Assembly: GCA_020241865.1 (NCBI GenBank)
Contig: GCA_020241865.1_4709.1
Reading direction: 5' to 3' (one strand)
DNA from: a phage
Length of the DNA: 64,000 nucleotides
Under the pieces are notes generated by a model. It searched no databases and was not told where the DNA came from. It saw only the letters and a program-made list of their open reading frames with translations. A program made the position numbers and the translations under genes. Below are positions 4,775-57,437 of the stretch, piece by piece (the first letter of the stretch is position 1; each line of letters begins with the position of its first letter).

Positions 4775-4807
4775 ACGGATGTAAAAAAAAAAATAACACA
4801 TAGTTAA

Positions 4808-4842
4808 CCTTCTCCCCAACCCGATGAGGGAAGGGGAGAAGG
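4808..4842. terminator. GC-rich stem-loop CCTTCTCCCC/GGGGAGAAGG (family member) between convergent genes
   Basis: Perfect 10-bp inverted repeat around CCC-GATGA-GGG inner hairpin; A11 tract 4783-4793 just upstream. Confidence 0.6.
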
Positions 4843-4862
4843 GCTATGCGCTATTTAATTTA

Positions 4863-7789: not shown

Positions 7790-9586
7790 TCAATCGATTA
7801 TGTCGTGATCGTTAATTTCTACAATTTCTTCATCGAATCGACCGACGTCTTTCTTCAAGCCTGCATTGGTTGCTGCAACGTCATTTGCAATTTGTGGGGT
7901 AATGATTAACCGACCGCGCTCATCGATAGGTGCGTACATACTGAACTTCTGACGTCCGGTTGGTTCGGAGTGTGGAAGATTCAGATAGCTTGCACAGAAC
8001 GGGATGGAACCACTAACCAAACGACTCTCGTCAGCCAATGCAGCACCGCCTGCGTTTTGGCTCTGGAGAACAACATGCGTGCTCACTTTGAACAGCATGC
8101 AATCACCCGGTGACTGAATCGATGTTGCCACTTTCTCACGTTTATCACGATTGCTCTGGATATTGAGAATCGCTTCCGTTGCAACTTGATTTCGCAACGC
8201 CTTCTGTACATCGCGATTGGTCATCTCTTTACGGTTGTTCTGTCGTTTACCACGTTCTGTGGTTTTAAGATGGAACCCCAGTTTAAAGATGCTCTTACGC
8301 ACATCCTCCATGACATATTCCAACACCATCAATTCCTTACCGAACATCGTCGTGGTATCAACACGACTCATTTCGATAGTAACATTGTCAATCAGATAGG
8401 CCATAAATTCATAGAAGTCGTCGCAAGGAATATTTTCCTGTTTGAACTTCTTCTGCTGAATTTCGTCAACGTAAAGATCGAGACTGTCGATGTGGTGGTT
8501 TACATCACGCAACAAACGCGCATCCGCATTGTTGTTATTAAAGATAATCAAACCGAGTAATGTACGCCAATGGTCTGGCGCATTCGCGAACTCTTCAACC
8601 GGATAGTCTTCCGGAAAACGATCGTAATAACGGTCGATGAGATACAAGAATGCACCGACAAGGCCAAGAACAATACGTTCCGTGCCTCCACGTCTTACTG
8701 CAATTTGAATATCAGGATGTTTGTAACGTACAGCGCTAGCGCTACGGCTTTTACCGCTTTTGCTGATACTAAAACCTTTAGGAATAACCCCCATGGTGCG
8801 ATAGATTACCCATTGGTCACGCGGAAAATCACGTTCAGCAAGGTTCCGTCCGGTTACGGCTTCGACACCTGCAAAACGTCGGAAACACTCACCCACCCCG
8901 TACTTCGCAAAGAGATAGTGACCCAGTGTGGTTACGCTGGTGTGGTTGATGTTGTCACCGTTCACTTTACTTTGTTTGGTAAGATGATAGATTTGTGACC
9001 AGGGTAATGACAGGTAATGACGATAATCGATACCGGTCGGTGTATCATTGCTCAGGAACTGATACGGTGTACGTTTAACCGTGATTTTGTCACGCGGAAG
9101 CATGATGAACGCCATGTCTTTCGTGTAACTGATTACCGGGTCAGCGAGCACTGCACTGAGAATGAAGTTCGCACCACGTAGACGCATTTTACCACCCTGA
9201 CCTACCGCGGGTAATAGGAGAGGATGTCGGATAATGCAGTAGTCCTTTCCGGGTTCACGACGGTCACCTGATTCCATCGCTCCGTACCAGCGGAATTCTA
9301 GCATCACCATAAACACATCGGATGGCGCAAGGTCGAAGGTCAGCTTACCGCTATCCTTCCCTTTGGTTTTCTTTCCTCCGCTTAAGTAGTGGAACTGTTC
9401 GCGGGCCATACAGCGACGCAGGCCATGATACACCAGATCCTTAGGTAAACTATCTTTGCTGTTCCGCCAAAGACGATCAACATAGGACTCAACATCTTGC
9501 ATCTTATCGACGACGATGTTGCGTGCTATCTTCTCGTTCATCTTCGGTGCAAGCCCAGCGACAGCTTTGCAGAATCTAGGATCCAT
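7790..9586 (-). CDS. hypothetical protein (about 598 aa)
   Basis: ORF track 7790-9589 starts at GTG; ATG at 9586 has AAAGGAG 6 nt upstream. Confidence 0.85.
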   Translation of the reverse strand: MDPRFCKAVAGLAPKMNEKIARNIVVDKMQDVESYVDRLWRNSKDSLPKDLVYHGLRRCMAREQFHYLSGGKKTKGKDSGKLTFDLAPSDVFMVMLEFRWYGAMESGDRREPGKDYCIIRHPLLLPAVGQGGKMRLRGANFILSAVLADPVISYTKDMAFIMLPRDKITVKRTPYQFLSNDTPTGIDYRHYLSLPWSQIYHLTKQSKVNGDNINHTSVTTLGHYLFAKYGVGECFRRFAGVEAVTGRNLAERDFPRDQWVIYRTMGVIPKGFSISKSGKSRSASAVRYKHPDIQIAVRRGGTERIVLGLVGAFLYLIDRYYDRFPEDYPVEEFANAPDHWRTLLGLIIFNNNNADARLLRDVNHHIDSLDLYVDEIQQKKFKQENIPCDDFYEFMAYLIDNVTIEMSRVDTTTMFGKELMVLEYVMEDVRKSIFKLGFHLKTTERGKRQNNRKEMTNRDVQKALRNQVATEAILNIQSNRDKREKVATSIQSPGDCMLFKVSTHVVLQSQNAGGAALADESRLVSGSIPFCASYLNLPHSEPTGRQKFSMYAPIDERGRLIITPQIANDVAATNAGLKKDVGRFDEEIVEINDHDIID

Positions 9587-9625
9587 CACACACTCCTTTC
9601 AGAAAGTTGCTTAAGCAGATTAAAG

Positions 9626-11062
9626 TTACTTTTTCGATGACGCTTTCTCAAGAATCTTGAAAAAGGTCATACCTATACCGACAACGGCCGCGGTTATGCT
9701 CGCAGCGGCTTTCCAAACATCGACGTTACGTTGACGTCGCGCTTCTTCCGCTTCACGTTGTCTTTTTGCCTCTTCATCACGTCGACGTATCTCAGCAGCA
9801 AACTCGTCGTGCTTACGTTTGGATTCTTCGTCTCGACGACGAAGTTCAGCGACGAATTCTTCATGTTTGCGTTTAGCCTCGTCATCACGACGTTTTAAAT
9901 CAGCTTGATAATCTTCGTGTATTTGTCTACGTAGATCATCTTGACGTTTCATTTCGGCTTGGTGTTGTTCCATCCTACGTTTTTGTTCGTCTTTAAGCTG
10001 ATCGAGTTCGGCTTTATGTTGTTCATCACGCAGCTTTGCGTCGGCGCGATGCGCCTCATGCATCTGTGCGATAACTGCCTTGTGTTCATCCGCCATACGT
10101 CGCATTTCAGCCATCACCCCTTTAAGGGTTTCTTCTGATGCCTTACGTTCGTAGCTACGTTGGTCGAAATCATTTTTGTAGGCTTCTTTTTGGATGGGGT
10201 CGCGCCAATGCAATGCCGATTCACGCGTCGGAAAAACATTGTACTTCCACATCTCTTTTTCCAAATCTTCGACCGGTACGAAGATGGAGTCATTATTCCC
10301 GAAGGTAACCAACATACCTGGCGCGCCTGCTCCATTCGTTGGTTTTATTTCGAACGCTTTCCCCAGCACGTTAACCCATAAGCTATACGGATTATGAAAG
10401 TCGGGCGGCGTCCAATGGATAGTGAGTTGCGTTCCGAGAATCCGGAAACCCTCTGTTTTTCCCGTCAAGCTCCGCGCGCACGTTGCGATGTAGGGGTGAT
10501 CAATCCCTTTCGTAACGTGGTCTGCGCTTTTGTATTCTCCTTTAACTTTTACGATTGCCACGTTGATTTGCGCGACATAAGCAGGTTGATTAAAGTTCAG
10601 CGTGTTGAGGTCAATTTGACATATTTCATCCAGCGTATCGTACCAGTCTTGCTGGTCTAATAGACGCGGCATTTTCTCTGTGTTAACAATACGACGGATA
10701 TGCGGTTTCCTTATCGCGTAACCTGTGCCGTTTTTAACACGGAGTATATCCCGACGTCTACCCGCGTAGACGAAGTTTCTGAATGCACCATTCGCATTAG
10801 ATACGTCATGGCTGTCAACTATTACAGGACTACGAAATTTTGAACGTCGTACGATCCTGAATGTATTGCCGTCCTCAACCCTACCAGGAATGTACTGGAA
10901 CATATTGTCGGAGGTGATAACCAACACGGTATGGCCAGATTCATTAATACATGCCCATCCTAATTCCAGGTCATATAACGGTTCAGCATAACCGTCAATG
11001 CGATAAGCGTGCGTACCATCCCACGGTTCGAACGCGGTATCACATATTGGCATGGAGGGCAT
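9626..11062 (-). CDS. tail-anchored membrane protein candidate: globular N-domain, charged repeat helix, C-terminal hydrophobic segment
   Basis: ORF track (track start 11068 is TTG; ATG 11062 has GGAGG 7 nt upstream); in-frame repeats RRRDEE-x-KRKH-x-EF; hydrophobic stretch AAASITAAVVGIGMTFF near C-terminus. Confidence 0.8.
   Translation of the reverse strand: MPSMPICDTAFEPWDGTHAYRIDGYAEPLYDLELGWACINESGHTVLVITSDNMFQYIPGRVEDGNTFRIVRRSKFRSPVIVDSHDVSNANGAFRNFVYAGRRRDILRVKNGTGYAIRKPHIRRIVNTEKMPRLLDQQDWYDTLDEICQIDLNTLNFNQPAYVAQINVAIVKVKGEYKSADHVTKGIDHPYIATCARSLTGKTEGFRILGTQLTIHWTPPDFHNPYSLWVNVLGKAFEIKPTNGAGAPGMLVTFGNNDSIFVPVEDLEKEMWKYNVFPTRESALHWRDPIQKEAYKNDFDQRSYERKASEETLKGVMAEMRRMADEHKAVIAQMHEAHRADAKLRDEQHKAELDQLKDEQKRRMEQHQAEMKRQDDLRRQIHEDYQADLKRRDDEAKRKHEEFVAELRRRDEESKRKHDEFAAEIRRRDEEAKRQREAEEARRQRNVDVWKAAASITAAVVGIGMTFFKILEKASSKK
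9775..9915 (-). repeat. in-frame tandem repeats inside CDS 9626-11062 encoding charged helix repeats
   Basis: Repeated DNA units visible at about 9780-9900 translating to KRRDDEAKRKHEEFVAELRRRDEESKRKHDEFAAEIRRRDEEAKRQ. Confidence 0.7.
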
Positions 11063-11211
11063 CGTCAACCTCCATCTGATTGAAAACTATCACGCATAAT
11101 ACATTTCCCTTTTCTTGTTCTTATCGAGCCGACAGCCGACGGTTTCAGCATCGTTCCTAGCGCGAGAACGACCTTACGTGTTGTCTATGCCTTATTCATC
11201 GCAGGCGTCTG

Positions 11212-11236
11212 TCACCTAGGTAATGTAAGCGTCAAA
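11212..11236 (-). promoter_or_regulatory. conserved promoter-like motif copy 3 (minus strand TACATTACCTAGGTGA)
   Basis: Shares CACCTAGGTAATGTA core with motifs at 19381-19416 and 57405-57437; lies in 330-bp intergenic region upstream of gene 9626-11062. Confidence 0.4.
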
Positions 11237-11270
11237 TTTTTTCTATTCGCAACAATAAACGGCATAGAAA

Positions 11271-11300
11271 CCTCCCCCAACCCTTACGGGCTGAGGGAGG
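11271..11300 (-). terminator. GC-rich stem-loop, family member in inverted orientation (CCTCCC...GGGAGG around CCC-TTAC-GGG)
   Basis: Inverted repeat read from sequence; downstream of stop of gene 11400-13622 on minus strand. Confidence 0.5.
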
Positions 11301-11399
11301 CTGACTTATGTATCACGGTGCCGGATGAATGTCCGGTGCAATGAAACCATCCGCAACGTTGTCGTCAAGAATATCGTCCAACGAAGCAGCTACGGTAGT

Positions 11400-13622
11400 T
11401 CAGTTAGTCTGAACAGGCAGCTTGATGTTTTCAGTGTAGACCTTACGCAGGTTCACAACGTTAATCAGACCCAGCAGCGGGCAGTTGTTAACGAAGCGGC
11501 AGCGCGGCTGAACCATGGTTTCTTTAGAAACCTGACCGTTACGGGTAACCTGAGCAACAGATACCAGTTCCGGTACATACAGGAACATACCGAAGGTCAG
11601 CGGATCCGGAGAACCCTGGATACCACGAGACAGGGTCACGAAGATCTTATCGCGCAGCATGACGTTCGGGTTATCTACAACCACGAAGTTGAAGCTTACA
11701 CCAACGGTGCGGAAATCACCATCGGTCTGCAGGAACTGCGGGATGTAGTTGTCAGTTGCTACTACGCAACGCGGTTTCTCATCAGCGTTGGAAGACAGCA
11801 GCTGCAGAGCTGGCTGATAACCAGACTCGGAGTACATGCGGTATGCCATCTCACGAATCACGTTCATGATCGCAGCAGACACTTCAGCACGACGTTCTGC
11901 AGTGGTGGTACCCTGAACAGATTTCTCCAGGTCCAGATTGATTTCTTCGAACCACGGACGGATCAGGTAACGACCGAAACCTTCGATCTGGATGTCGCCG
12001 AACTGACGGAAGCGAGAGGTCGCAACCGCTTTCAGTGCGTCTTTGTAGCTGAACAGTTTCTCAACCATCAGGTTGTCGAAACGTGCGTTAGCAGCTTGGA
12101 TCAGAACGTCCAGGTCAGCAGCGTTTTCTTCCCAATCCAGCGGACGAGGAATGGAGAACGGAGCCAGCAGGCCGATTGCGTAACGTTCTTGCTTCATGTT
12201 GAAGTCAAGGTGCTTACCGCGCTCACGACGGTTGCTGTTGTTACGGCGGATACGCAGTTCGTAACCAACCAGTTTGAAGCTCAGGTCTTCAGCCAGTTGT
12301 TTGAACTCTTCGCTCTTACGCGGTTGTTCGATGTTGTCCTGATCAACCAGGCGATACAGTTCAGCGTTAGCGCCGTTAACACGCAGACCGGCTTTCTCTA
12401 CGTTGGAAGAACCGTAAACTTCGATCGCCAGCTGAGCAGCAGATTTCGCATCGATGATGTCCTGCAGCGCTTCAGCTTTCGCGCCTTTAACGTCTTTGGT
12501 GTTCTCATCAACGAAGATGGAGTGGGTGTCGAACGCCAGGGTCATTTTGCGGAAGTCGCCTTCCAGGGATTTCTGGAAACCGTTGGTGATCAGACCAGAT
12601 ACGTCGAACGGTACGTAAGAGGTTTTGCTGTGCTTGGTAGATTTGATTTCCACCAGGATTTTGGTCAGCGTGATCTGGGCGTCCAGCGCGTCGGTGTTGT
12701 CGCTGTAACCGTTAGCCAGGATGCTATCGTCTTCAGCAATACCGATCATGTCGATCAGTTTATCAACAGCCAGGTAAGACGTTTTGTAAGTTACGCCTTT
12801 AATTTCGATGTCGCGCGGAGCAACGATAGCTTTGTCAACGAAGTACTGTGCGTTAGCATCGTCAGCACGATAGATCGGATGCAGATCGGTCACGTCGTTG
12901 GACAGAACGTCGTTGTACATGAACGCATCCAGCAGCGGACGACGTACCCAATCAGCCGGAGTACCGTCAGCGTTACGACGCAGGTGGTTGAACACCAGCG
13001 GACGACGGAAAGATACGTCGTAACCGATCTGGTTCGGAGCCAGAACGATGGTGTTGTACAGTTCGTTACCCATGCGGCTCAGACGAGAAGCCTTCACGTT
13101 GAACACAACGGAGTACGGCATCATGTCACGCAGTTCTTTCTGGTCGTAGGACAGCTGAACCAGTTCTTCAGATTCGCAACCGCAGGAATCAGCAGCCATC
13201 ATGACGAAGTTAGAGCTGTCAACTTCACGGCCAGACGGAGTGGTGCTGATGTTCATGGAACGTGCTTGTTTAGCATATTCTACCGGGTTACCATGAGCCA
13301 GCATGATCAGTGCTGCTGCACGAGCCTGCTGTGCGTTCATGGTGAACAGCTGTTCTTCAATACGCTGCTTCTCTTCCGGAGTGGTGGTTTCGAAGCCCAG
13401 CATGGACAGAACCGGTTCTTCGGCTTTACGGATGTCGCTGCTGAAGCTCTTAACATCCATTTCGTTAACCAGTTTGTCCATGGATTTGAAATCAACCTTA
13501 GAAGCAGATTCCATAGACAGGAAGGTGTTCTCCAGACCTTTGTCTGCTGGTTTGCTACCATTAGCGGTCAGGAACTGGCGAGTGGCCGCGACCTGTTGGC
13601 TAAGAAGGGTTTTATCATTCAT
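11400..13622 (-). CDS. highly expressed virion protein, candidate major capsid protein (740 aa)
   Basis: ORF track; ATG 13622 with AAAGGA upstream; strong codon bias (CTG, CGT, GGT, GAA dominate) and a 766-aa stop-free antisense frame; size fits jumbo-phage capsid proteins; no motif-level proof. Confidence 0.85.
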   Translation of the reverse strand: MNDKTLLSQQVAATRQFLTANGSKPADKGLENTFLSMESASKVDFKSMDKLVNEMDVKSFSSDIRKAEEPVLSMLGFETTTPEEKQRIEEQLFTMNAQQARAAALIMLAHGNPVEYAKQARSMNISTTPSGREVDSSNFVMMAADSCGCESEELVQLSYDQKELRDMMPYSVVFNVKASRLSRMGNELYNTIVLAPNQIGYDVSFRRPLVFNHLRRNADGTPADWVRRPLLDAFMYNDVLSNDVTDLHPIYRADDANAQYFVDKAIVAPRDIEIKGVTYKTSYLAVDKLIDMIGIAEDDSILANGYSDNTDALDAQITLTKILVEIKSTKHSKTSYVPFDVSGLITNGFQKSLEGDFRKMTLAFDTHSIFVDENTKDVKGAKAEALQDIIDAKSAAQLAIEVYGSSNVEKAGLRVNGANAELYRLVDQDNIEQPRKSEEFKQLAEDLSFKLVGYELRIRRNNSNRRERGKHLDFNMKQERYAIGLLAPFSIPRPLDWEENAADLDVLIQAANARFDNLMVEKLFSYKDALKAVATSRFRQFGDIQIEGFGRYLIRPWFEEINLDLEKSVQGTTTAERRAEVSAAIMNVIREMAYRMYSESGYQPALQLLSSNADEKPRCVVATDNYIPQFLQTDGDFRTVGVSFNFVVVDNPNVMLRDKIFVTLSRGIQGSPDPLTFGMFLYVPELVSVAQVTRNGQVSKETMVQPRCRFVNNCPLLGLINVVNLRKVYTENIKLPVQTN

Positions 13623-13771
13623 TGAAAGTATCCTTTACAGAATTAACTTATATAAGTCGGTCGATAGACCATAGCGTACACGCGTGCATGCGCCACTATA
13701 GTATCAGTAAACACTTACCGTTATTGAGGTCGTGATACAACACTAAAAATGCCGCATAACTTTTCCCTACG

Positions 13772-14392
13772 TCATAAACGACGCAGGCGATAATGGATGG
13801 AACGATTGGTGCAATATGAACGGAACAGCGGCAATTGCGCAACTTCCGCAAGACTCATATTAATTCGCAGGTGTTCAATAACGGCGCTGTAGTTATCAGC
13901 AATACGATCGCTCAATAACTCTTCTGCCAATAAAGGAAGACAATCGACAACAATCGCGATCACATCCTCATTAACATAACGCACCCGAACACTCAACGGA
14001 CGTTTGTCTGGGCTGTAAGTTGGATCCGCCAAACGACGTTCAATATCACGCGGATAGCTCGTCAGTAAATGGTAATAACCATTGTCATAACGATTGATGT
14101 ACTCACACAGCACATCAACATTCTTCTCTGGCGGCAAACCTGTTTCGTCATAGTGATACGCAAACATACCACCAAGCAGGTTGTTAAGATGAACCGCAGG
14201 GTTCGTTTGTTCGTGTTCTTTCGTGATGAAGAAAGGCACGTTCTGGGCTGCGAAATAAAAACCTACATCATTGGGCGATAGTATGCCGAAAAGACTTTTA
14301 GGGTCTAATAACACCTGTAAGTCATCACGCGCATTTCGAATAATCGCGTGTTCTACCCAATTCGGAACGACGAGATATCGGAGTTCCTTCAT
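13772..14392 (-). CDS. hypothetical protein (206 aa)
   Basis: ORF track; ATG 14392 with AGAGG upstream; divergent from 14432 gene. Confidence 0.75.
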   Translation of the reverse strand: MKELRYLVVPNWVEHAIIRNARDDLQVLLDPKSLFGILSPNDVGFYFAAQNVPFFITKEHEQTNPAVHLNNLLGGMFAYHYDETGLPPEKNVDVLCEYINRYDNGYYHLLTSYPRDIERRLADPTYSPDKRPLSVRVRYVNEDVIAIVVDCLPLLAEELLSDRIADNYSAVIEHLRINMSLAEVAQLPLFRSYCTNRSIHYRLRRL

Positions 14393-14431
14393 TATGATTA
14401 CCTCTTTGCAAGTATCGAAAGGATTGAGTCG

Positions 14432-16042
14432 ATGGACCCAAAACAGATAGCCATTAAGATTATTACGTTACTGTTTCGTAATGCACAATTGAACCATCCC
14501 GATCCCAGTACGATCGAACATGTTAAATCCGTCTTAGATAAAGTCGAACCCCCGAAAAACCATCTCGCTACAGACGTAGATAGAGAGGTTTTCAACAACC
14601 TGATGAATACCATTCATTGGATGTTGGAACAACCATTATCGGAACCTTTCGATAAACAACAGTTGTTACAAAGGATACGTTTGGATTGCCTTGAACAAAG
14701 CAATCTTTACGAGATTCTTGCCGACGGACTGTACGATATCGAAGACGACGCTCATATCAGTAAGGTCTGTTCACTCTATTACAACGAATTACGTAATCTG
14801 ATTACCCGTCGTCGTGTTTTCGAAACCTTTAGAAACACGTACATGGATATCAGTAACGGGCGACTTGGGGATAAAGAATTTTTCGATGCAATGGCGAATC
14901 TGAAATTATCGCTAGACAGTATCGAAATGGATACCGAAAATCCCGAAGAGATGTCGTGTATGATTGACGGCTTTATCGCTGACAGCGAAGACGATATCGA
15001 GAAAGTCGAACGTATGTTCGTCAAAGCGATGGAACGTAACAGTCCTGAAGGTGGATTTGTAACCGGCTGGCAAGGCTTTAATAAAATGTTGGGGTCGGTC
15101 GGTGTTTTACGTCGCGGTACCTTAGGACTGATTGGTGCAATGCAGCACCGGAACAAGTCAGGCGTGTTGTTAAAACTGTTCACACATCTGGCATTGTACA
15201 ACAAACCCCATTTCTTTTTCCCGGAGCGAGCAAAGAAAGCATTACTGATTCATTTGTCGACAGAAAACGAAGTGGAAGAAAACACGCTTCAGATATACAA
15301 GAACATGCGAGAACAGGAAACAGGCGAATATGTCGATATTCGTAAGATTGACCCTCGCGAGGCATCACGTTATGTGTTGAAGGTGTTCAACGATGCGGGT
15401 TTCTCTGTTTGTATGCGTCGTGTTGATGGGATGAGTTATAAACAACTCGCTAATCTCATCGACCATTTCGAACGCATGGGTTATGAAGTCATGGCGTTGT
15501 TCATTGACTATCTGAAAATGTTCTCATCGGAAGGGCTGGATAGAAATGGACCGACCGGCGCATGGCTCCAAGAACTCTTCAACAAAGTCCGTAACCTCTG
15601 CAGTGTTAAACGTATTTTAGGCATGACCGTACACCAGCTGTCATCCGATGCGAAGATGCGTGCACGTGATGGCAACGATGAAGAGTTTGTTGACCAAGTC
15701 GCAGGTTTAAGTTACTGGGATGGTTGTAAAGGGATTGACCGTGAGATTGACCTTGAAGTGATTGTTGATATCGTTAAGGAACCGGGCAAACGTCAAAGCT
15801 GGCAAGTCTTTGCATTAGGGAAAGACCGTCAACCGGATAACGGTTCAACGAAACCTGAAGACAAACACTTCGCAATGCCATTCCAAACCATCGGGATGCT
15901 TCCTGATGATTACGGTAAGAAAGCAGTGTATTGCCGCAAGGTTGGCGGACAACCTGTCTCCGAGGGAGGTAAAGGTCCGTGGAACAAGTTCGATGAAAAC
16001 GCAGCACCGAGTAATGAATTACAATTTGATTTAGAATTTTAA
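14432..16042 (+). CDS. DnaB-family helicase homolog candidate with atypical P-loop (537 aa)
   Basis: Track start 14348 would overlap the divergent gene; ATG 14432 has AAAGGA 8 nt upstream. Motifs by eye: GAMQHRNKSG (Walker A with Asn in place of the second Gly), KPHFFFPERAKKALLIHLS, LFIDYLKM (Walker B/H2-like), VHQLSSD (H3-like), in DnaB-like order and spacing. Confidence 0.75.
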   Translation: MDPKQIAIKIITLLFRNAQLNHPDPSTIEHVKSVLDKVEPPKNHLATDVDREVFNNLMNTIHWMLEQPLSEPFDKQQLLQRIRLDCLEQSNLYEILADGLYDIEDDAHISKVCSLYYNELRNLITRRRVFETFRNTYMDISNGRLGDKEFFDAMANLKLSLDSIEMDTENPEEMSCMIDGFIADSEDDIEKVERMFVKAMERNSPEGGFVTGWQGFNKMLGSVGVLRRGTLGLIGAMQHRNKSGVLLKLFTHLALYNKPHFFFPERAKKALLIHLSTENEVEENTLQIYKNMREQETGEYVDIRKIDPREASRYVLKVFNDAGFSVCMRRVDGMSYKQLANLIDHFERMGYEVMALFIDYLKMFSSEGLDRNGPTGAWLQELFNKVRNLCSVKRILGMTVHQLSSDAKMRARDGNDEEFVDQVAGLSYWDGCKGIDREIDLEVIVDIVKEPGKRQSWQVFALGKDRQPDNGSTKPEDKHFAMPFQTIGMLPDDYGKKAVYCRKVGGQPVSEGGKGPWNKFDENAAPSNELQFDLEF

Positions 16043-16063
16043 ACGCAAAAAAAAAAAGATTGT

Positions 16064-16112
16064 GCGGTTCCCTCCTCCAACCCGTAAGGGAAGGAGGAGG
16101 GGTTATGACCGC
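16064..16112. terminator. GC-rich stem-loop CCCTCCTCC-AA-CCC-GTAA-GGG-AA-GGAGGAGGG with extended flanking stem GCGGT/ACCGC, between convergent genes
   Basis: Perfect inverted repeat; A11 tract 16047-16057 gives a U-tract after the hairpin for minus-strand transcripts. Confidence 0.65.
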
Positions 16113-16117
16113 TTTGA

Positions 16118-17567: not shown

Positions 17568-18470
17568 TTACTTAGTCTTCGAGTTACAAGGACTGACATG
17601 TTGTTGTACTCGTTGAATCGTATCGTAGTACGGGTTAGATTGGTTGAACATGCTGTTGTGTGGATGATAGCCGTATGGCGCATTTTGCCTTGTTGATGAG
17701 AAACCTTGTTGAGAAGGACGATTTGAATTAACCGCGAGTACGTAGTAAACCAAATTTTGACGGTCGAACGTTCCTTCGTTTTTGAAGGTGTCGGCGTAGG
17801 TGTTTATCGCTGGAGCGAGTCTATCACCATCGGCGGTAATAATTGTACCGTCTGGGTAAACTTCACGAACGACGCACCATGTTCCGATAAGAACGTCTTT
17901 GGGCGGCGTATTGCCGTATCCGGTTGTAACGGTAAGGTAAGTATCGAACCCTTCAGAACAACAAGGATGACGATAGATAGGTCCTGTCATTTCCGTTCTA
18001 TCGGTATCGTCGCATTTCTCTATCGAGAGCGATGGTGTGTCGGTTTTGAAATTGTCAAATTCTTTCTTTAAGTCGATTACAGGTTCTTTCGTATAGTACT
18101 TCTTGATTGCTTTGACGTAAAGATCAGGAACGGTTGTCAGCATTCCGTTATACCTGATTCTCAGGTTTTCGAGTAATCCAAAGATACTCGCGCATGCTTG
18201 TTCGCGAGGTTTTGTAAGATAAGAGATCCCCCCAGGAACGCTGGGATCTTTGAGAAAGAAGATTGCGTTATTGTCGTTGTGCAGTGCGTTGAAGAAAACG
18301 ATTGATTCGATATATACGGAGCATAGGCTGTCGTTGGCGTCGTCAGATAACACCCAGATGCACTCATCGGTCGTCTTGTTTAAAAGTTCTGTTTTGTCCA
18401 CCAAACGTTGTTTCATTGCGAGGAAATGTGCCTGTTGTTCAGCGGATAATTCACGATAAATAGTGGTCAT
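17568..18470 (-). CDS. hypothetical protein, tandem paralog of 18556-19329 (about 300 aa)
   Basis: Track ORF 17568-18548 trimmed to ATG 18470 (AAGGAG 6 nt upstream); shares IY-HP-C...YL-T-G and REVYPDG-I motifs with neighbour. Confidence 0.8.
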   Translation of the reverse strand: MTTIYRELSAEQQAHFLAMKQRLVDKTELLNKTTDECIWVLSDDANDSLCSVYIESIVFFNALHNDNNAIFFLKDPSVPGGISYLTKPREQACASIFGLLENLRIRYNGMLTTVPDLYVKAIKKYYTKEPVIDLKKEFDNFKTDTPSLSIEKCDDTDRTEMTGPIYRHPCCSEGFDTYLTVTTGYGNTPPKDVLIGTWCVVREVYPDGTIITADGDRLAPAINTYADTFKNEGTFDRQNLVYYVLAVNSNRPSQQGFSSTRQNAPYGYHPHNSMFNQSNPYYDTIQRVQQHVSPCNSKTK

Positions 18471-18517
18471 GTTGAGCTCCTTGATTACGATAAGGATGAT
18501 TGCGGTTTTGTGATGCT

Positions 18518-18546
18518 GGTAGGGCCCTAAACAAAGGAGCCCTACC
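18518..18546 (-). terminator. stem-loop GGTAGGGC/GCCCTACC between tandem paralogs
   Basis: 8-bp inverted repeat with 13-nt loop in the spacer between stop 18556 and start 18470. Confidence 0.5.
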
Positions 18547-18555
18547 AATATTGGG

Positions 18556-19329
18556 TTACTCAGGATCGGCGTAGAAATGGTGAGGATAGCCGGAGTACGA
18601 TCCCGCGTTACCGGCTATGGATTCTTTCTGGGAATCGACGACGAGCGCATAGAACTGTCGGGAATTTGTTAGCGTTGAGAAATAAGCGGAAAGGACTTTT
18701 TCATTCAACGCATCGCAAGGTAGACAGGTGCGACCGCAAAACGTCACGATACGGCCGTCGGGATAGATCTCACGAATCATTCTCCACTCACCGATATCCA
18801 CTGGTGATGGCGCTGCTACACCACCTGTTATCGTTAAGTAACGATCGTACGTGGTATGGCATTCAGGATGAATATAGATCGGCTTGTTCGTTTCGACAGG
18901 TTCCGAAGTATCTCGACGACTAAGAAGCTCAACGACTTCAAGATAAATCGTTGGTAGATCGCGGAGAATACCGGTGCTACGACGTTTCTTTGTGATTCGC
19001 GGACGAATCTCGTTGAGAGCGTATTCGAGCTTACGTTCAGCTTCGTACGCATCGAGTTTTATCAGGCGACCCGGTTCATCGGAATGATCCTGAGTTACGT
19101 AAACGAAATACGCGTTGCCTTTTGCAGCGTGAAAGATTCGAGCGACCTTAAATGTTTCTACGGTACGATACCCAAGGCGCGATTGATTTTCCACAGGAGA
19201 AAATATCCAATGTCGTCCTTCGTCCGCCTCAACAATTTCGTTGAAACTATCCGTTTGTTCTGGGACCTGGTAGTCAGCCATTAATGTATCAAGAGCGTCG
19301 TCAGCCAGTTTGATGTAAATATCTGTCAT
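18556..19329 (-). CDS. hypothetical protein, tandem paralog of 17568-18470 (about 258 aa)
   Basis: Track ORF runs to 19542 through the intergenic stem-loop and promoter-like motif; ATG 19329 has GAGGA upstream and begins MTDIYIKL, matching MTTIYREL of the paralog. Confidence 0.8.
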   Translation of the reverse strand: MTDIYIKLADDALDTLMADYQVPEQTDSFNEIVEADEGRHWIFSPVENQSRLGYRTVETFKVARIFHAAKGNAYFVYVTQDHSDEPGRLIKLDAYEAERKLEYALNEIRPRITKKRRSTGILRDLPTIYLEVVELLSRRDTSEPVETNKPIYIHPECHTTYDRYLTITGGVAAPSPVDIGEWRMIREIYPDGRIVTFCGRTCLPCDALNEKVLSAYFSTLTNSRQFYALVVDSQKESIAGNAGSYSGYPHHFYADPE

Positions 19330-19380
19330 GTTTGTATCCTCGGCTATTAAGAGAAATTTACAGTGATAACAGTAACCGTT

Positions 19381-19416
19381 GTTATCACCTAGGTAATATA
19401 GTCGCGAAATAAACTG
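19381..19416 (-). promoter_or_regulatory. conserved promoter-like motif copy 1 (minus strand CAGTTTATTTCGCGACTATATTACCTAGGTGATAAC)
   Basis: Near-identical 33-nt copy at 57405-57437; contains TATATTAC; about 50 nt upstream of ATG 19329 and just downstream of stem-loop 19434-19465; adjacent inverted repeat TGATAACA-N8-TGTTATCA at 19364-19387. Confidence 0.5.
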
Positions 19417-19433
19417 GGTTAGACAGTATATGA

Positions 19434-19465
19434 CCCTCTCCCAACCCGTAAGGGAAGGGAGAGGG
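19434..19465 (-). terminator. GC-rich stem-loop CCCTCTCCC-AA-CCC-GTAA-GGG-AA-GGGAGAGGG (family member)
   Basis: Perfect inverted repeat starting 5 nt after stop of gene 19470-20837. Confidence 0.65.
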
Positions 19466-19469
19466 AATA

Positions 19470-20837
19470 TTAAACGGTTGGACGAACAGTATTGTCTTTT
19501 TCTGGTGCAATCCATAACGTGACTGTACCATGGCATGTCCACTGCGGTTCACGCACAGAAGAACCTGCCATTGTAACAGCGCAATCGGTACGCATGATAA
19601 CCCCGTATGCTTCGCAGAGATTGTTATCCTGCATCCACACAACTTTAGCGGGCATGCCAGGATACAACAAATCCATGTTTGCGTATTCCCACACCAACTG
19701 CATCGTTCTACCGCGTAATCCGGCAGTATTGCTTAATTCACGCCATCGGTTATCGGTTACGCGTCCCATCCCTTTCGCCACTTTCACGTTATCGCTACGT
19801 TCTTCAGTTACGTACTCGCTAACGTTTACGGTACGACTGATGATCGTATCACCCCCTTTTGATAATGTCATTCCCTGACTCATCTGACTTGCCGAAACAA
19901 AACGCCCACCCGCATTACCTAACAACGAAGCCGCGTTATTGATGTCGCTTACCGACGCCCCTCTCGTACACGCAATTTCCACGTATTTGTCACGATTGAT
20001 CCAGGTCTTGTCCATGCCCGGAAACATATCGGCAGGATAGTTGTAAAAGATCGCCGTGCGCCGACCGTCAGAGAAACGGGTTTCGTCGTATAAGGGGTAG
20101 ATATACAGATACGGGGATTGATAATAACAACCGACGTCAGCTGAATAAATACCGACCTGGTTCTGTATTTTATCTACGAGATCCATCGCATTGGTACCGT
20201 GTGGAAGAATAAGCAACTTGAATGGGTTGTCGTTATTCGGTGCAACAATATCCACACCCTGCATTTTGAATCCGGTGTCAGCTTCAACCGCAGAAAGTAT
20301 CTTGCTGAATTCAAGTCGCAGTACATCCAGCACTTTCGACCCAGTATAGTTCTCACCGGTTTCTGATTGCATGAAGCTTTCAAGAACAGGATCGAACAGT
20401 TGAAATTGAAGATCGACCATTTGTTCGTAGTCTTTCTTCGAAGAATCGGTTGCGGTACGTTCGTCGGTAGCGGACATACGACTGTCTACGGTTGTTAAAC
20501 AAACCGCTCGGTAGACGTAAGCTTGTGCGGCATCGTCTACGGTTTGGCGTTGTCCGCGCATCAGGCTGTACGCCTGCACGATGATGCGCATTTTAAGTTG
20601 TTGTTGGTACGGTAGAATGTATTTTCCGTAACTGCCGGGCGGGAACTTTACAGAGATATAGAGTTCATCTCCAGCGTTACGTTCATAGTCTCGATACGTG
20701 TGGACTTGAGTCACTAAAGGAACAGACACCGTCATTGACGGCGTGATTAATTCCGCGGTGACTTTATACGCAACAGCAACTGCTTCCTGCGCAAATGTAC
20801 CGATATACCGTCCTAACGGCGTCTGTTTGTAATCCAT
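19470..20837 (-). CDS. hypothetical protein (455 aa)
   Basis: ORF track; ATG 20837. Confidence 0.85.
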   Translation of the reverse strand: MDYKQTPLGRYIGTFAQEAVAVAYKVTAELITPSMTVSVPLVTQVHTYRDYERNAGDELYISVKFPPGSYGKYILPYQQQLKMRIIVQAYSLMRGQRQTVDDAAQAYVYRAVCLTTVDSRMSATDERTATDSSKKDYEQMVDLQFQLFDPVLESFMQSETGENYTGSKVLDVLRLEFSKILSAVEADTGFKMQGVDIVAPNNDNPFKLLILPHGTNAMDLVDKIQNQVGIYSADVGCYYQSPYLYIYPLYDETRFSDGRRTAIFYNYPADMFPGMDKTWINRDKYVEIACTRGASVSDINNAASLLGNAGGRFVSASQMSQGMTLSKGGDTIISRTVNVSEYVTEERSDNVKVAKGMGRVTDNRWRELSNTAGLRGRTMQLVWEYANMDLLYPGMPAKVVWMQDNNLCEAYGVIMRTDCAVTMAGSSVREPQWTCHGTVTLWIAPEKDNTVRPTV

Positions 20838-41625: not shown

Positions 41626-41646
41626 AACAAAATAGCATGAGCATAA

Positions 41647-41678
41647 CCCTCCTCCAACCCGTCAGGGAAGGAGGAGGG
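41647..41678. terminator. GC-rich stem-loop CCCTCCTCC-AA-CCC-GTCA-GGG-AA-GGAGGAGGG between convergent genes
   Basis: Perfect inverted repeat between stop 41625 (plus) and stop 41688 (minus). Confidence 0.65.
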
Positions 41679-41687
41679 AATATGCTG

Positions 41688-50137: not shown

Positions 50138-51889
50138 ATGAGCGAACAAGAACGAAAACCTAAGAAGAAACTGCTCGGTATTCAATGTCGACACATCAGC
50201 TATAACGAAGCGAACGATGGCAGCAAGAACGACCTCATGATCGCAAAAGAGATCATGTTCTTCGATGATAATACGCAAGCGACGAACCTTCGCTTCTTCG
50301 AGAATTACAAACGTCCGTTTTGGGTGACGGTAGAGAGTAAACGTAAGAACAAATATAAAAAGGAAAGCGAGAAGCTCTCGCATGTGCGTCGCTACGATGT
50401 CCGCCAAAGCGAACTGGTTGAAAAGATCAGCTCGGTACTTTATAAAAGACGTGCTGACGATAACACCCGTTTACAGCAGCTTGCACGGAGTCCATACCTC
50501 TATGGAACGGACGTTAGCGCCAGCTGTTATTTAAAAACCCAGTACAACACAAAATGGCCGGAATACGTCGATAAATTACCCGCTTCCATTGCCTGTTTCG
50601 ATATCGAAACCGACGTTGTCCACGGACACGGTAAGATCGTTTGTATGTCTATTACAATGGGATACAATGCGATACTTTGCTATACCAAGGACTTCGTTGG
50701 TCATATTCCGAATGCCATTGAGAAAACCCATGAGAAGATTCGATATTACCTGGCCGAACGTCTGAATACCAAAGAAGATCCCCACGCATTCGAAAAATAT
50801 CAGTACGATGTTCGAATCGTAGAAAGCCCGGCACAAGCGGTCATCCAATGCATGCAGAAGGTTCACGAATGGCAGCCGGATTATCTCCTTGGCTGGAATA
50901 TCGCGTTCGATATTCCGCGCATGCTCCAGGCACTGAACGAGGAAGGGTATCGTCCCGAGGATGTTTTCTCCGATCCCCGTATACCACCTAAATATCGTAT
51001 TGCTCGCTGGGTACCACCGAAGACCGACAAGGTATCTGCTTCAGGTCGTAAAACCAACCTTACCCTTGAGCAAACCTGGCCGATGTTTTATACGATGGCT
51101 ACGTATCAGGTTATGGATGCGATGTGTGGCTATAAGTTCGTTCGTTTAGGAAGACCGGATGAAGGACGCTATTCACTCGATGCGGTGTTAGAGCGAAATA
51201 AATGCCATACGAAATTAAAAGCTATTCCTGGTACAGAGGGGTTCACGGAGCTTGCCTGGCACGAAGAGATGCAAACGAACCATCAAATCGACTACGGCGT
51301 ATATAACCTTTGGGATAACCAGGGTATTGAGGCGTTGGACCAGAAAACAAAAGACTATTCGATGACCATCCCTATCCGTTTAGCGGCGTCGGATTTGAAA
51401 GATTTCAGTTCTAACCCTAAACGTATCTGCGATAAACTTTTCTTCGTTTATCTTAACCGTGGGGAAGTCATGGGATGTACCGCTGACGACATGACCCAGG
51501 AAGAAGATAAGTGGGTTATCTCACGAGCTGGACATATCGTCACATTACCATGCGATCTCATGGCTGACAACGGCATTCATCTCTTCTGGGATATGCCGAA
51601 CCTGAGAAGTTATATCCGTCTATTCGTTGCAGACCTTGACATTAGCAGTTCATACCCGAATGGGCAGATCCTGTTGAATCTATCCAGAGCGTGTGTTTTT
51701 CGCGAGCTCTCACGCATTGAGGGCGTCTCTGACTATCAATTCAGGAAGTTAGGTATCAACTTTATTACCGGAGGTAAAACGAACGCTGTAGACTTCTGTA
51801 GAATCGTTTATAAAGCACCATCGATGTTTGAACTTTTAGAACATTTCGATGCAACGCGTCCAAAAGAGGAAGCGCGGACCATCGAATGA
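50138..51889 (+). CDS. family-B DNA polymerase N-terminal fragment (3'-5' exonuclease domain plus motif A), 583 aa
   Basis: Motifs by eye in canonical order: Exo I CFDIETD (about residue 155), Exo II WNIAFDIP (about 258), Exo III Y-x3-D (YQVMD about 323 or YSLDAV about 345), motif-A-like DLDISSSYPNG (about 499); no motif B (K-x3-NS-x-YG) or motif C (YGDTDS) before stop. Confidence 0.8.
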   Translation: MSEQERKPKKKLLGIQCRHISYNEANDGSKNDLMIAKEIMFFDDNTQATNLRFFENYKRPFWVTVESKRKNKYKKESEKLSHVRRYDVRQSELVEKISSVLYKRRADDNTRLQQLARSPYLYGTDVSASCYLKTQYNTKWPEYVDKLPASIACFDIETDVVHGHGKIVCMSITMGYNAILCYTKDFVGHIPNAIEKTHEKIRYYLAERLNTKEDPHAFEKYQYDVRIVESPAQAVIQCMQKVHEWQPDYLLGWNIAFDIPRMLQALNEEGYRPEDVFSDPRIPPKYRIARWVPPKTDKVSASGRKTNLTLEQTWPMFYTMATYQVMDAMCGYKFVRLGRPDEGRYSLDAVLERNKCHTKLKAIPGTEGFTELAWHEEMQTNHQIDYGVYNLWDNQGIEALDQKTKDYSMTIPIRLAASDLKDFSSNPKRICDKLFFVYLNRGEVMGCTADDMTQEEDKWVISRAGHIVTLPCDLMADNGIHLFWDMPNLRSYIRLFVADLDISSSYPNGQILLNLSRACVFRELSRIEGVSDYQFRKLGINFITGGKTNAVDFCRIVYKAPSMFELLEHFDATRPKEEARTIE

Positions 51890-51936
51890 TTCAAGTAGGT
51901 TGATCCTCGCTTAACAAAAAAGAAAACACATGCGAA

Positions 51937-51969
51937 GCCCCTCCCCCTGGCGGAAGCCGGAGGGAGGGG
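51937..51969. terminator. GC-rich stem-loop CCCCTCCC...GGGAGGGG between convergent genes
   Basis: Imperfect inverted repeat between stop 51889 (plus) and stop 51976 (minus). Confidence 0.55.
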
Positions 51970-51975
51970 TGAGGT

Positions 51976-57404: not shown

Positions 57405-57437
57405 ATCACTAAGGTAATGTAGTCGCGAAATAAACTG
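57405..57437 (-). promoter_or_regulatory. conserved promoter-like motif copy 2 (minus strand CAGTTTATTTCGCGACTACATTACCTTAGTGAT)
   Basis: Near-identical to 19381-19416; adjacent inverted repeat TGATAAGA-N8-TCTTATCA at 57385-57408; about 67 nt upstream of ATG 57338. Confidence 0.5.

Follow-up and report, generated by a model that had tools for sequence, protein, structure and literature searches.

Probable four-part organisation of the long spacer behind the major capsid protein gene of a Goslar-like jumbo phage

Introduction

Why does a phage keep an unusually long spacer directly behind its capsid gene, and what does that spacer encode? The question is raised by positions 11,063 to 11,399 of a 64,000-nucleotide stretch of phage DNA (GenBank assembly GCA_020241865.1, contig GCA_020241865.1_4709.1), which we refer to in full as the window. 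In a preliminary description the spacer was taken to be non-coding, and was suggested to encode a small RNA or to be a regulatory hub situated between two transcription units, one late and one early. Here we argue that it probably comprises four parts on the minus strand: a readthrough tail of the capsid protein, a terminator, an early promoter and a 5' untranslated region (5'UTR).

Results

Relatives and layout of the locus

The window is 98.9% identical to the Escherichia coli jumbo phage Goslar (Chimalliviridae), and thus derives from a close relative. The gene that borders the spacer (11400..13622, minus strand) is the homolog of Goslar gp41, and ends with a TGA at 11402..11400 that is followed by A. 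It encodes the major capsid protein (MCP), as judged by matches to the Pfam family PhiKZ_MCP (E 5e-218) and to the PHROG category major head protein, and the product is 99.7% identical to Goslar gp041. Its codon bias is extreme, with CTG accounting for 64 of the 67 leucine codons. Depending on which start is assigned to gp040, the first gene on the other side, the spacer measures 331–337 nt; no other spacer of the window is as long, the runners-up being 221, 214, 174 and 149 nt; the earlier remark on an unusually long spacer downstream of a capsid-sized gene was thus accurate. Since the MCP gene is encoded on the minus strand, this is the strand on which the spacer is to be read. Both the strand and the continuation of the capsid reading frame over the first 87 nt had been missed in the preliminary description.

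The gene order is identical in phiKZ, where DnaB, gp119, the MCP gene, a 196-bp spacer, and gp121, gp122 and gp123 follow each other, and the anatomy of the spacer is also alike. When phage records were searched with the spacer at the nucleotide level, Goslar was the sole match. After Goslar, the next MCP in the database is 34% identical, which means that nucleotide conservation can be tested with metagenomic relatives only. Comparisons of close strains refer to nine Goslar-like strains; the MCPs of two other lineages, L007 and L009, are 71% and 68% identical to that of the window.

An in-frame extension behind the capsid stop codon

Directly after the MCP UGA, and in frame with it, lies a 28-codon open reading frame (ORF), TTVAASLDDILDDNVADGFIAPDIHPAP (11316..11399, minus strand), which is closed by a second stop, TGA, at 11315..11313. 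In all nine Goslar-like strains the extension is in frame with the MCP, its length and both TGA stops are kept, and the context of the MCP stop is TGA-A. Since in-frame ORFs of at least 28 codons follow 27% of Goslar genes by chance, the case for a tail rests wholly on conservation. When the extensions of the window and L009 are compared, frame 0/0 gives a BLOSUM62 score of 40, a value that is reached by none of 2000 shuffles, while other pairs of frames score at most 20. Nucleotide matches between the two amount to 47%, 68% and 26% at the first, second and third codon positions (counted by eye), and seven of the nine identical residues are specified by different codons. Among the nine close strains, five changes fall at codon positions 1–2 and five at position 3, and the constraint on the extension is far weaker than that on the MCP itself.

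The distribution of the extension follows the identity of the stop codon. An in-frame ORF of 18–28 codons that stops before the terminator is present in 6/6 lineages with a TGA-ended MCP, which are not phylogenetically independent (the window is related to L009, and phiKZ to Noxifer), and in 0/11 lineages with a TAA-ended MCP. TGA is the stop codon of only 23% of Goslar genes. In TAA lineages a homologous tail is built into the MCP, which ends, e.g., in …YLDGLKYPTP in LucasX and in …DLDGLKQPGAKD in Proteus phage 10; L007 and Eowyn are without any MCP tail. The extension also carries the non-optimal codons TTG and TCG, both of which are absent from the MCP proper, and this fits translation at a low level.

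The literature that we searched contains no report of a leaky-UGA capsid tail in jumbo or nucleus-forming phages, and a preprint that describes the Goslar virion by cryo-EM and mass spectrometry makes no mention of an extended MCP. According to the same preprint, gp41 that is fused to GFP at its C-terminus shows capsid-like behaviour, and this end of the MCP therefore tolerates additions. Neither a conserved stop-codon context nor a stimulatory structure was found, and there is no suppressor tRNA in Goslar or the window. For phiKZ, the extension would give rise to easy tryptic peptides (YLENGTIR and YLEDGNAR). The predicted junction peptide of Goslar, LPVQTN-W-TTVAASLDDILDDNVADGFIAPDIHPAP with Trp at the UGA, is free of K and R.

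Based on the conservation at the protein level, the first 87 nt of the spacer are probably a hidden MCP tail that is made only when ribosomes pass a leaky stop; the label non-coding is thus probably wrong for this part. We infer that the weak UGA-A stop is read through by a small fraction of ribosomes, which would append a 28-residue acidic tail (…LDDILDDNVADGFIAPDIHPAP) that ends at the second UGA, and that the product would be a minor capsid subunit with a C-terminal extension. Inside the last codons of the extension (P D I H P) lies the weak hairpin that had been placed near 11318–11340. It is real, with the sequence CCGGA-cattca-TCCGG at 11336..11321 on the minus strand, a fold energy of –10.1 kcal/mol and z = –2.65. 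All five of its pairs are invariant in the nine strains, and the comparison is therefore silent for or against a structure.

A predicted phiKZ-type terminator

A GC-rich hairpin, whose 15-bp stem includes three G-U pairs and is capped by a GUAA loop, occupies 11269..11302 on the minus strand, and is followed by the 3' tail UUUCUAUGCCGU (11259..11270), which includes a TATG at 11266..11263. The predicted fold energy is –31.3 kcal/mol on the minus strand (z = –5.8) and –21.4 kcal/mol on the plus strand, where the G-U pairs turn into C-A mismatches. The stem-loop that had been noted at 11271–11300 is therefore real, but not inverted as had been stated, since it folds better on the strand that is sense for the MCP transcript. 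Six of the 15 pairs vary among the nine strains through one-sided changes, and pairing is kept in every cell of the comparison. In L007 and L009, different sequences at the same position fold equally well. MAFFT left the stems of distant lineages unaligned, for which reason covariation was counted on the nine close strains only.

In phiKZ, in which 3' ends have been mapped with ONT-cappable-seq, the terminator consensus ends in ...GGBYTTATKYYGT (PMC10914365). Tested against TTATKYYGT, the tail is CTATGCCGT in the window, with one mismatch, TTATGCCGT in L007, and TTATGCCGC in L009, with one mismatch at the last base. Across the strong hairpins of Goslar, a TATG is found within 10 nt after the hairpin in 32/76 cases and before it in 0/76. 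The hairpin together with TATGCCGT is thus a terminator motif of the known phiKZ type that would close the late MCP unit. A scan for sigma-70 promoters and canonical terminators across 9000–14500 left the spacer empty; as for the terminator, it is missed because the scan requires a T-run that these terminators lack. The hairpin and UUUCUAUGCCGU would serve as a conserved chimallivirus intrinsic terminator, at which the very abundant late MCP transcript of the non-virion RNA polymerase is expected to end, at about 11259–11268.

The TATG at 11266..11263 has a second possible role. In phiKZ, the late-promoter motif is TATG with G as +1, and TATG is necessary but not sufficient (PMC4666361). Because the TATG behind the hairpin is both a part of the terminator motif and the nvRNAP late-promoter core, it may restart late transcription, possibly from G 11263.

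A predicted early promoter

The next element is a predicted early promoter, i.e., one of the kind used by the virion RNA polymerase, with the sequence AGAAAAAATTTGACGCT-TACATTAC-CTAGGT-GACAGA at 11208..11244 on the minus strand and the core at 11227..11220. A 37-nt block (…TTTGACGCT-TACATTAC-CTAGGT-G) is invariant in the nine strains, while both flanks are variable. The promoter-like motif of the preliminary description corresponds to TACATTACCTAGGTGA at 11227..11212 (minus strand), which recurs in the window at 19400..19385 and 57421..57406, and indeed matches the published early consensus. In the full Goslar genome, TAYATTACYTNNNTG occurs in 13 copies against 0.16 expected in shuffles, and all 13 are located 25–205 nt upstream of genes on the same strand, chmA included. 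The position of the promoter is kept in L007 and L009, and an early-type motif after the MCP terminator is also present in phiKZ, pEa_SNUABM_54, DT01, FLC9 and Eowyn.

Compared with published early-promoter sequences (PMC7058600, Table 2), AAAAAATTTGACGCT-TACATTAC-CTAGGTGA agrees with the extended AT-rich consensus: its core resembles TATATTAC, and a T/A tract lies upstream of it. We considered the “middle” promoter of phiKZ (AAanTTACc at –24) as an alternative but dropped it, since over the full 30 nt of context the agreement with the early consensus is far closer and the motif is found in front of chmA; in phiKZ, an early motif is found at the primary transcription start site of chmA (PMC8244752). 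By the rule for start sites in PMC5312081, we predict that +1 is G 11213. Our literature search found no Goslar transcriptome, and gp121–123 are not mentioned in the phiKZ dRNA-seq paper. Located some 40 nt past the terminator, the promoter (TTTGACGCT-TACATTAC-N6-G) would be used by the virion-packaged RNA polymerase, with transcription expected to start around 11213 as infection begins.

The leader and the downstream unit

The predicted 5'UTR of gp040 comprises 150 nt (11063..11213, minus strand), and no other part of the spacer varies as much: about 29% of its sites differ among the close strains, and L018 has an additional 51-nt insertion. The predicted stability of the 181-nt leader does not exceed that of shuffled sequences (z = +0.93), and Rfam gave no match at the gathering threshold for the whole window, nor at E ≤ 1 for 10950–11500. 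A small hairpin in the 5'UTR, GUCGUUC / GAACGAU (11150..11172, minus strand), has an unremarkable energy that does not exceed that of shuffles; three of its seven pairs change on one side, all remaining paired via G-U, and the insertion in L018 falls in its loop.

A 10-codon upstream ORF (uORF), MRDSFQSDGG, at 11065..11097 (minus strand) ends 2 nt before the gp040 ATG. Its ATG and length are kept in 9/9 strains, the peptide being different in L016 (MHVCCLFEGG), and L009 has an 11-codon uORF that overlaps the start codon. Ending at the ribosome-binding site of gp040, the uORF may couple or tune translation. The evidence is weak for a stem at 11052..11075 (minus strand), AUGGAGG / CCUCCAU, which would pair the gp040 Shine-Dalgarno sequence with codons 2–4 and place the start codon in the loop: its energy of –9.5 kcal/mol is no better than in shuffles (z = –0.2), and 96.8% of the cells are paired in the nine strains.

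The gp040 homolog (9626..11062, minus strand), the first gene of the downstream unit, has a charged repeat region and a hydrophobic C-terminus. Its listed start is TTG 11068; ATG 11062..11060, with GGAGG 6 nt upstream, is likelier and agrees with the Goslar annotation. The gp039 homolog (7790..9589, minus strand) is a PHIKZ123-like, beta-type subunit of the non-virion RNA polymerase, with matches to PDB 7ogp chain E (E 2.9e-40) and to the PHROG category ‘polymerase’ (E 1e-119). In phiKZ, PHIKZ123 is an early gene product. The 150-nt leader would run into gp040 and then gp039, the PHIKZ123-type subunit. The suggestion of a hub at the border of late and early transcription is hence supported by a phiKZ-type terminator motif and a predicted early promoter that faces gp040/gp039.

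Resemblance of the extension to a docking tail

The DUF7941 fibre proteins gp23 and gp22 of Goslar have a C-terminal docking tail (preprint 10.64898/2026.04.21.720040). The extension aligns with the gp23 tail with a score of 55, which is not reached in 1000 shuffles. The two share the pattern L..[VI]L.DNVADGF[VI].P.[VI], with 10 of 18 residues identical, and the extension covers eight of the 11 invariant or near-invariant tail positions of gp23 homologs. The phiKZ extension showed no convincing match to gp126/gp127 or to other ORFs in the 108–130 kb and 150–190 kb regions of phiKZ. An extra 179-residue gene that follows the promoter in L007 was considered as a gp23-like protein and ruled out, as it is a GIY-YIG homing endonuclease homolog.

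Discussion

Alternative explanations of the spacer

A purely regulatory spacer would contain the same terminator and promoter, but a plain 3'UTR in which the ORF is the untranslated relic of an ancestral MCP tail truncated by a nonsense mutation. The frequency of chance ORFs agrees with such a relic, as do the close strains, in which half of the variable extension sites are at codon positions 1–2, the complete absence of the tail in lineages such as L007 and Eowyn, and the lack of a proteomic report of an extended MCP. Decay, however, would not leave the ORF open and in frame in six lineages. Amino acids are kept while synonymous sites diverge, frame 0/0 outscores the other frames at least twofold, and the ORF is always found behind TGA, never behind TAA or TAG; we therefore regard the relic as unlikely. 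Even less probable is a free small protein of about 22–28 residues, made by re-initiation after the MCP stop, which would mimic the gp23 tail and could, e.g., cap DUF7941 filaments. The resemblance to the conserved docking tail is in line with this idea, and the window offers a TTG codon 18 nt past the stop, but there is no Shine-Dalgarno sequence or conserved start, and the TTG aligns with CTG in L009. Moreover, the ORF shares the MCP frame in every TGA lineage, and in TAA lineages the MCP chain itself includes the homologous tail.

It is very improbable that the spacer serves to produce a discrete small regulatory RNA, be it a short one initiated at the promoter motif or one that stems from the MCP 3'UTR and ends at the hairpin. 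Short RNAs derived from 5'UTRs are known in phiKZ and 201phi2-1 (PMC10914365, PMC11512511), the start of the leader (~11191..11161) is nearly invariant in the nine strains, and the 3' end of the MCP mRNA with its hairpin would make a stable RNA end. Against this stand the empty Rfam search, the unremarkable fold of the leader, and an interval between promoter and gp040 without any terminator-like hairpin. Beyond the promoter the leader cannot be aligned with L007 or L009 and tolerates the 51-nt insertion, and conservation in the 3'UTR follows codon positions rather than RNA structure. On these grounds the small RNA proposed in the preliminary description finds no support.

A possible role of the readthrough tail

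The preferred reading, a tail produced by readthrough, can be extended to a more tentative proposal, which we consider possible though doubtful. Many chimalliviruses would set the tailed share of their ~1,600 capsid subunits by means of a leaky UGA, while relatives with TAA either tail all subunits or have lost the tail. In Goslar-like phages the tail would copy the docking peptide of gp23, such that the few readthrough subunits would hold gp23/gp22 filaments on the head or nucleate them there. Attachment would then not be confined to the baseplate, the site that is currently proposed.

Goslar is a main E. coli model for nucleus-forming phages. The present analysis provides a first sequence-based Goslar map of an early-promoter class (13 sites, including chmA), of a terminator class, and of how the operon with the polymerase subunit would be shielded from the late gene with the strongest transcription. 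If the tail is real, capsids with recently determined cryo-EM structures contain a sub-stoichiometric component that the models lack. The tail would also explain why the capsid gene has a long 3'UTR in some lineages and a short one in others, and would connect the head, in a way that can be tested, with the DUF7941 fibre cloud that was described only recently.

Comparison with known systems

The terminator of phiKZ and 201phi2-1, 5'-BCCYCCCCHWWDGGGRRGGBYTTATKYYGT-3' (PMC10914365, PMC11512511), consists of a C-rich/G-rich tetraloop hairpin followed by (T)TATGYYGT, as here. Each genome has many copies of it, which often point both ways where genes converge, and the motif also ends the phiKZ MCP gene. 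The predicted terminator in the window differs by its longer stem (15 bp, three G-U pairs) and by a C in place of the first T of TTAT (CTATGCCGT). As for phiKZ late promoters of the P119L type (TATG with G as +1, bound by GP123), a TATG stands directly after the hairpin here and after 32 other strong hairpins in Goslar, but in the spacer it belongs to the terminator motif.

Early promoters are represented by TATATTAC in phiKZ, WTTTYAAACCTACATTATY in EL, …WTTTRARR-B-TATATTAC-DWHD-GTG in 201phi2-1 and AAATATATATTAT-N6-G(+1) in AR9. The phiKZ-like early promoters and the window have in common an upstream A/T tract, TTT(C/G)A, a TA(C/T)ATTAC core, and a conserved G after about 6 nt. Another similarity between these phages and Goslar is the presence of about a dozen or more copies per genome before early genes, including the gene for the nuclear shell. 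The Goslar version is extended to TAYATTACYT-NNN-TGA, and in the spacer copy the third base of the core is a C, which EL shares.

With the DUF7941 docking tail, the extension shares a sequence motif, found at the C-terminus of gp23 and in the MCP extension of the window. Unlike in gp23, the motif in the window is carried by a capsid protein and located behind a stop codon, and binding to the N-terminal domain of a DUF7941 protomer is putative.

Capsid genes that end in a recoding site are textbook cases in the small RNA phage Qbeta and in T7, where the extensions have been proven by experiment. The A1 protein of Qbeta results from readthrough of the coat-protein UGA, which is followed by A, and gene 10A/10B of T7 yields a capsid protein that is extended by frameshifting. 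In both phages, recoding produces a minor, C-terminally extended form of the capsid protein, and the same is proposed here. The Goslar-type case differs in that it concerns a 240-kb nucleus-forming dsDNA phage, an extension of 18–28 residues and evidence of a comparative kind. It also differs from Qbeta and T7 in that related lineages carry the tail as a permanent part of the MCP.

Spacer and flanking genes

Over 5 kb, the window shares 98.9% identity with Escherichia phage vB_EcoM_Goslar, a nucleus-forming jumbo phage with a genome of 237 kb that belongs to the Chimalliviridae. The gene for the major capsid protein (MCP; 11400..13622, minus strand; Pfam PhiKZ_MCP, E 5e-218) is followed on the same strand by the gp040 homolog (9626..11062; ATG at 11062, with GGAGG 6 nt 5' of it) and then by the gp039 homolog (7790..9589), with a match to PHIKZ123, which in phiKZ is the beta-like subunit of the non-virion RNA polymerase (nvRNAP; PDB 7ogp chain E, E 2.9e-40). 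Because MCP and the downstream unit lie on the minus strand, every spacer element is read on that strand. The long spacer reported in the preliminary description exists, measuring 331–337 nt depending on the choice of gp040 start, and is the longest in the window, the next-longest being 221, 214, 174, and 149 nt; the promoter-like motif, the stem-loop and the weak hairpin are also found where they had been placed. A long spacer after MCP is a family trait of chimalliviruses, ranging from 78 to 429 nt across the 16 other lineages examined, and amounting to 196 nt in phiKZ, where the gene order is as in the window. The length results from the stacking of four elements: an 87-nt putative capsid-tail open reading frame (ORF), followed by a predicted terminator (45 nt), a predicted early promoter (40 nt), and a leader (150 nt).

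The gp040 protein sequence is highly variable even within the Goslar-like strains, and has no match in Pfam or PDB; gp040 and its homologs share a long, Lys/Arg/Glu-rich stretch of repeats that varies in length, and their C-terminal segment is hydrophobic, with KK as the last residues. A 766-codon antisense ORF (11325..13625, plus strand) starts within the spacer and spans the entire MCP gene. It is a shadow ORF; owing to its extreme codon bias, MCP lacks the codons TTA, CTA, and TCA, whose complements are the antisense-frame stops.

Predicted terminator

The terminator hairpin (11302..11269, minus strand) forms an uninterrupted stem of 15 bp capped by a GUAA loop, and folds at −31.3 kcal/mol (z = −5.8; 0 of 200 shuffles fold equally well). 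The plus-strand fold reaches only −21.4 kcal/mol, since three G-U pairs turn into C-A mismatches. Directly 3' of the hairpin is UUUCUAUGCCGU, and units of a GC hairpin followed by (T)TATGC occupy at least 10 spacers of the window. Among the strong single hairpins of the full Goslar genome (≤ −22 kcal/mol), TATG occurs within 10 nt downstream in 32 of 76, and within 10 nt upstream in none. The hairpin is maintained among nine Goslar-like strains, where one-sided changes affect 6 of the 15 stem pairs and pairing is kept in every case. In two more distant relatives from public assemblies, L007 and L009 (MCP identity 71% and 68%, respectively), a hairpin of different sequence is found at the same place (−27.7 and −26.7 kcal/mol), and the tail TTATGCCG after it is retained. 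Hairpin and 3' tail correspond to the motif 5'-BCCYCCCCHWWDGGGRRGGBYTTATKYYGT-3', which ONT-cappable-seq has linked to 61 phiKZ terminators (PMC10914365). In sequence, the TATG after the spacer hairpin also coincides with the phiKZ late-promoter core bound by GP123 (PMC4666361, PMC12809450).

Where hairpin-plus-TATG units separate convergent genes, they are symmetric, carrying TATG on both strands (window 4775-4862, 16043-16117, 41626-41687, and 51890-51975, and many Goslar sites), and are probably bidirectional terminators.

Predicted early promoter

The motif TACATTACCTAGGTGA (11227..11212, minus strand) noted in the preliminary description conforms to the pattern TAYATTACYTNNNTG, of which Goslar has 13 copies against 0.16 expected, all on the minus strand and each preceding a gene of that strand by 25–205 nt; for the nuclear-shell gene chmA, the distance is 66 nt. 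Together with its upstream context (AAAAAATTTGACGCT…), the motif matches the published early-promoter consensus sequences of phiKZ-like phages, i.e., TATATTAC in phiKZ, WTTTYAAACCTACATTATY in EL, and …WTTTRARR-B-TATATTAC-DWHD-GTG in 201phi2-1, as well as those of N1M2/OBP (PMC7058600). The early motif is also found at the primary start site of chmA in phiKZ (PMC8244752). The start site lies 6 nt past the core in phiKZ, phiR1-37, and AR9 (PMC5312081), from which G 11213 is predicted as +1. A stretch of 37 nt (11244 to 11208) is invariant in the nine strains, whereas variation is seen in the 10 nt before it and in the leader after it. The motif is kept behind the MCP terminator in L007 and L009, and early-type cores occupy this position also in phiKZ, pEa_SNUABM_54, DT01, FLC9, and Eowyn. 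In L007, the early promoter and the gp040 homolog are separated by a free-standing GIY-YIG homing endonuclease gene (L007 12434..12973; Pfam GIY-YIG, E 2.6e-5).

An early promoter between the late MCP gene and the gp040–gp039 unit, behind a strong terminator, would be functionally sensible, since phiKZ expresses its nvRNAP subunits as early genes (PMC4666361). The earlier suggestion of a hub between a late and an early transcription unit is therefore supported at the level of predicted, terminator-shielded elements.

Another copy of the early promoter (19400..19385), likewise preceded by a hairpin, is situated at the edge of an insertion relative to Goslar (window 17568..19542), across which the coordinate offset shifts by ~1.7 kb. 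Goslar has a single ORF in this place, the 62-aa gp047, as opposed to two of ~326 aa (17568..18548 and 18556..19542, minus strand) in the window. The DNA polymerase ORF (50138..51889, plus strand; 583 aa) appears uninterrupted, while Goslar has a 499-aa polymerase CDS followed by a NUMOD1/HNH endonuclease gene, so that the window seems to be without that mobile insertion.

Leader

Of all spacer parts, the predicted 5'UTR (150 nt) is conserved least; ~29% of its sites vary among the nine strains, and beyond the promoter it is not alignable with L007 or L009. Its fold is no more stable than that of shuffled sequence (z = +0.93), the spacer has no match in Rfam, and no terminator is present between the early promoter and gp040. 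For these reasons, the discrete small RNA proposed earlier is not supported. Three smaller elements may be real, with weak support: a hairpin (11172..11150, minus strand) in which three variable pairs are all kept via G-U; a 10-codon uORF (11097..11065, minus strand), whose presence and length, but not peptide, are kept in the nine strains and L009; and a 7-bp minus-strand stem of unexceptional energy, pairing the gp040 ribosome-binding site with codons 2–4.

A block of ~33 nt early in the leader (~11191..11161, minus strand; AAGGCATAGACAACACGTAAGGTCGTTCTCGCG) is nearly invariant in the nine strains, while the remaining leader is variable. The leader of one strain, L018, has a 51-nt insertion (alignment columns 246-296, ~ window 11161) that contains two perfect small hairpins and falls precisely within the 5'UTR hairpin loop.

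A predicted capsid tail behind the MCP stop codon

TGA is the weakest stop codon, and ends only 23% of Goslar genes. Behind the MCP TGA, an 84-nt ORF continues in frame (11399..11316, minus strand), encoding TTVAASLDDILDDNVADGFIAPDIHPAP and closed by a second TGA. Its length alone is uninformative, since 27% of Goslar genes have such an ORF by chance, but five comparisons indicate that the frame is translated. The MCP gene of L009 likewise stops at TGA, behind which the frame continues as SLLELLGDGLLDGFGYPELP. The two extension peptides have nine residues in common, seven of them with different codons, and nucleotide matches at codon positions 1, 2, and 3 are 47%, 68%, and 26%. The local BLOSUM62 score is 40 in frame 0/0, which 0 of 2000 shuffles reach, compared with ≤ 20 in the eight other frame pairs. 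All nine Goslar-like strains retain the ORF, its length and both TGAs, and residue changes are mostly conservative (D/E, I/V, D/N), although the constraint is clearly weaker than on MCP proper. MCP uses CTG in 64 of 67 Leu codons and lacks TTG and TCG, both of which occur in the extension, as expected of a rarely translated continuation.

Across 17 chimallivirus lineages, the MCP stop is TGA in six (Goslar-like, L009, phiKZ, Noxifer, pEa_SNUABM_54, and FLC9) and TAA in eleven. An in-frame ORF of 18–28 codons ending ahead of the terminator hairpin is found in 6/6 TGA and 0/11 TAA lineages, for which Fisher's exact test would give ~1e-4, with the caveat that lineages are not independent. Some TAA lineages carry a matching tail as ordinary MCP C-terminus, e.g., LucasX (…VYLDGLKYPTP), SA002 (…AVLDGLNAQPKP), and Proteus phage 10 (…TDLDGLKQPGAKD), to be compared with the extension ends of L009 (…GLLDGFGYPELP) and FLC9 (…TDLDGFKVYPG). 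Scores are 39 for the FLC9 extension against the Proteus 10 tail (0 of 1000 shuffles), 28 for L009 against LucasX (p = 0.006), and 40 between the phiKZ and Noxifer extensions (0 of 1000 shuffles). Because homologous tails lie within MCP in TAA lineages, the tail would be part of the capsid polypeptide, and TGA lineages could add it only via stop readthrough. In the L007 lineage, MCP terminates with TAA and is without a tail. The phiKZ extension (12513..12593 of the phiKZ stretch L024, after gp120) is internally repetitive (RYLENG / RYLEDG).

Around the MCP UGA, neither a conserved stop context nor a stimulatory structure was found. As Goslar encodes no tRNAs, readthrough, if any, would depend on near-cognate decoding by the host. 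The Goslar cryo-EM and mass-spectrometry preprint reports no extended MCP, and describes C-terminal GFP fusions of gp41 (the Goslar MCP) that localise like capsids; no report of capsid readthrough in phiKZ-like phages was found in the literature searched. Given several independent comparative signals, we consider a leaky-UGA capsid tail probable. The phiKZ extension would give readily detectable tryptic peptides, providing a handle on readthrough in published phiKZ proteomes.

The extension was compared with all 6,997 stop-to-stop Goslar ORFs; apart from itself, it best matches the C-terminal gp23 tail (…QLATVLADNVADGFVKPTVSVVG), with 10/18 identical residues (E = 0.004, score 55, 0 of 1000 shuffles). 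This tail is one of the best-conserved regions in gp23 homologs (down to 44% identity), and the extension agrees at 8 of its 11 invariant or near-invariant positions. No comparable match to the phiKZ extension was found in the phiKZ parts examined (108-130 kb and 150-190 kb). Each virion contains ~2,140 copies of gp23, a DUF7941 protein, and anchorage of the DUF7941 "fibre cloud" at the baseplate has been proposed. One may speculate that a few read-through MCP subunits displaying a gp23-like peptide could anchor DUF7941 filaments on the head, but such a link to the fibres seems rather unlikely.

Comparison with known systems

With high confidence, the predicted terminator and promoter of the spacer can be assigned to known chimallivirus classes. 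The leaky-UGA capsid tail would represent a new form of an already known recoding strategy.
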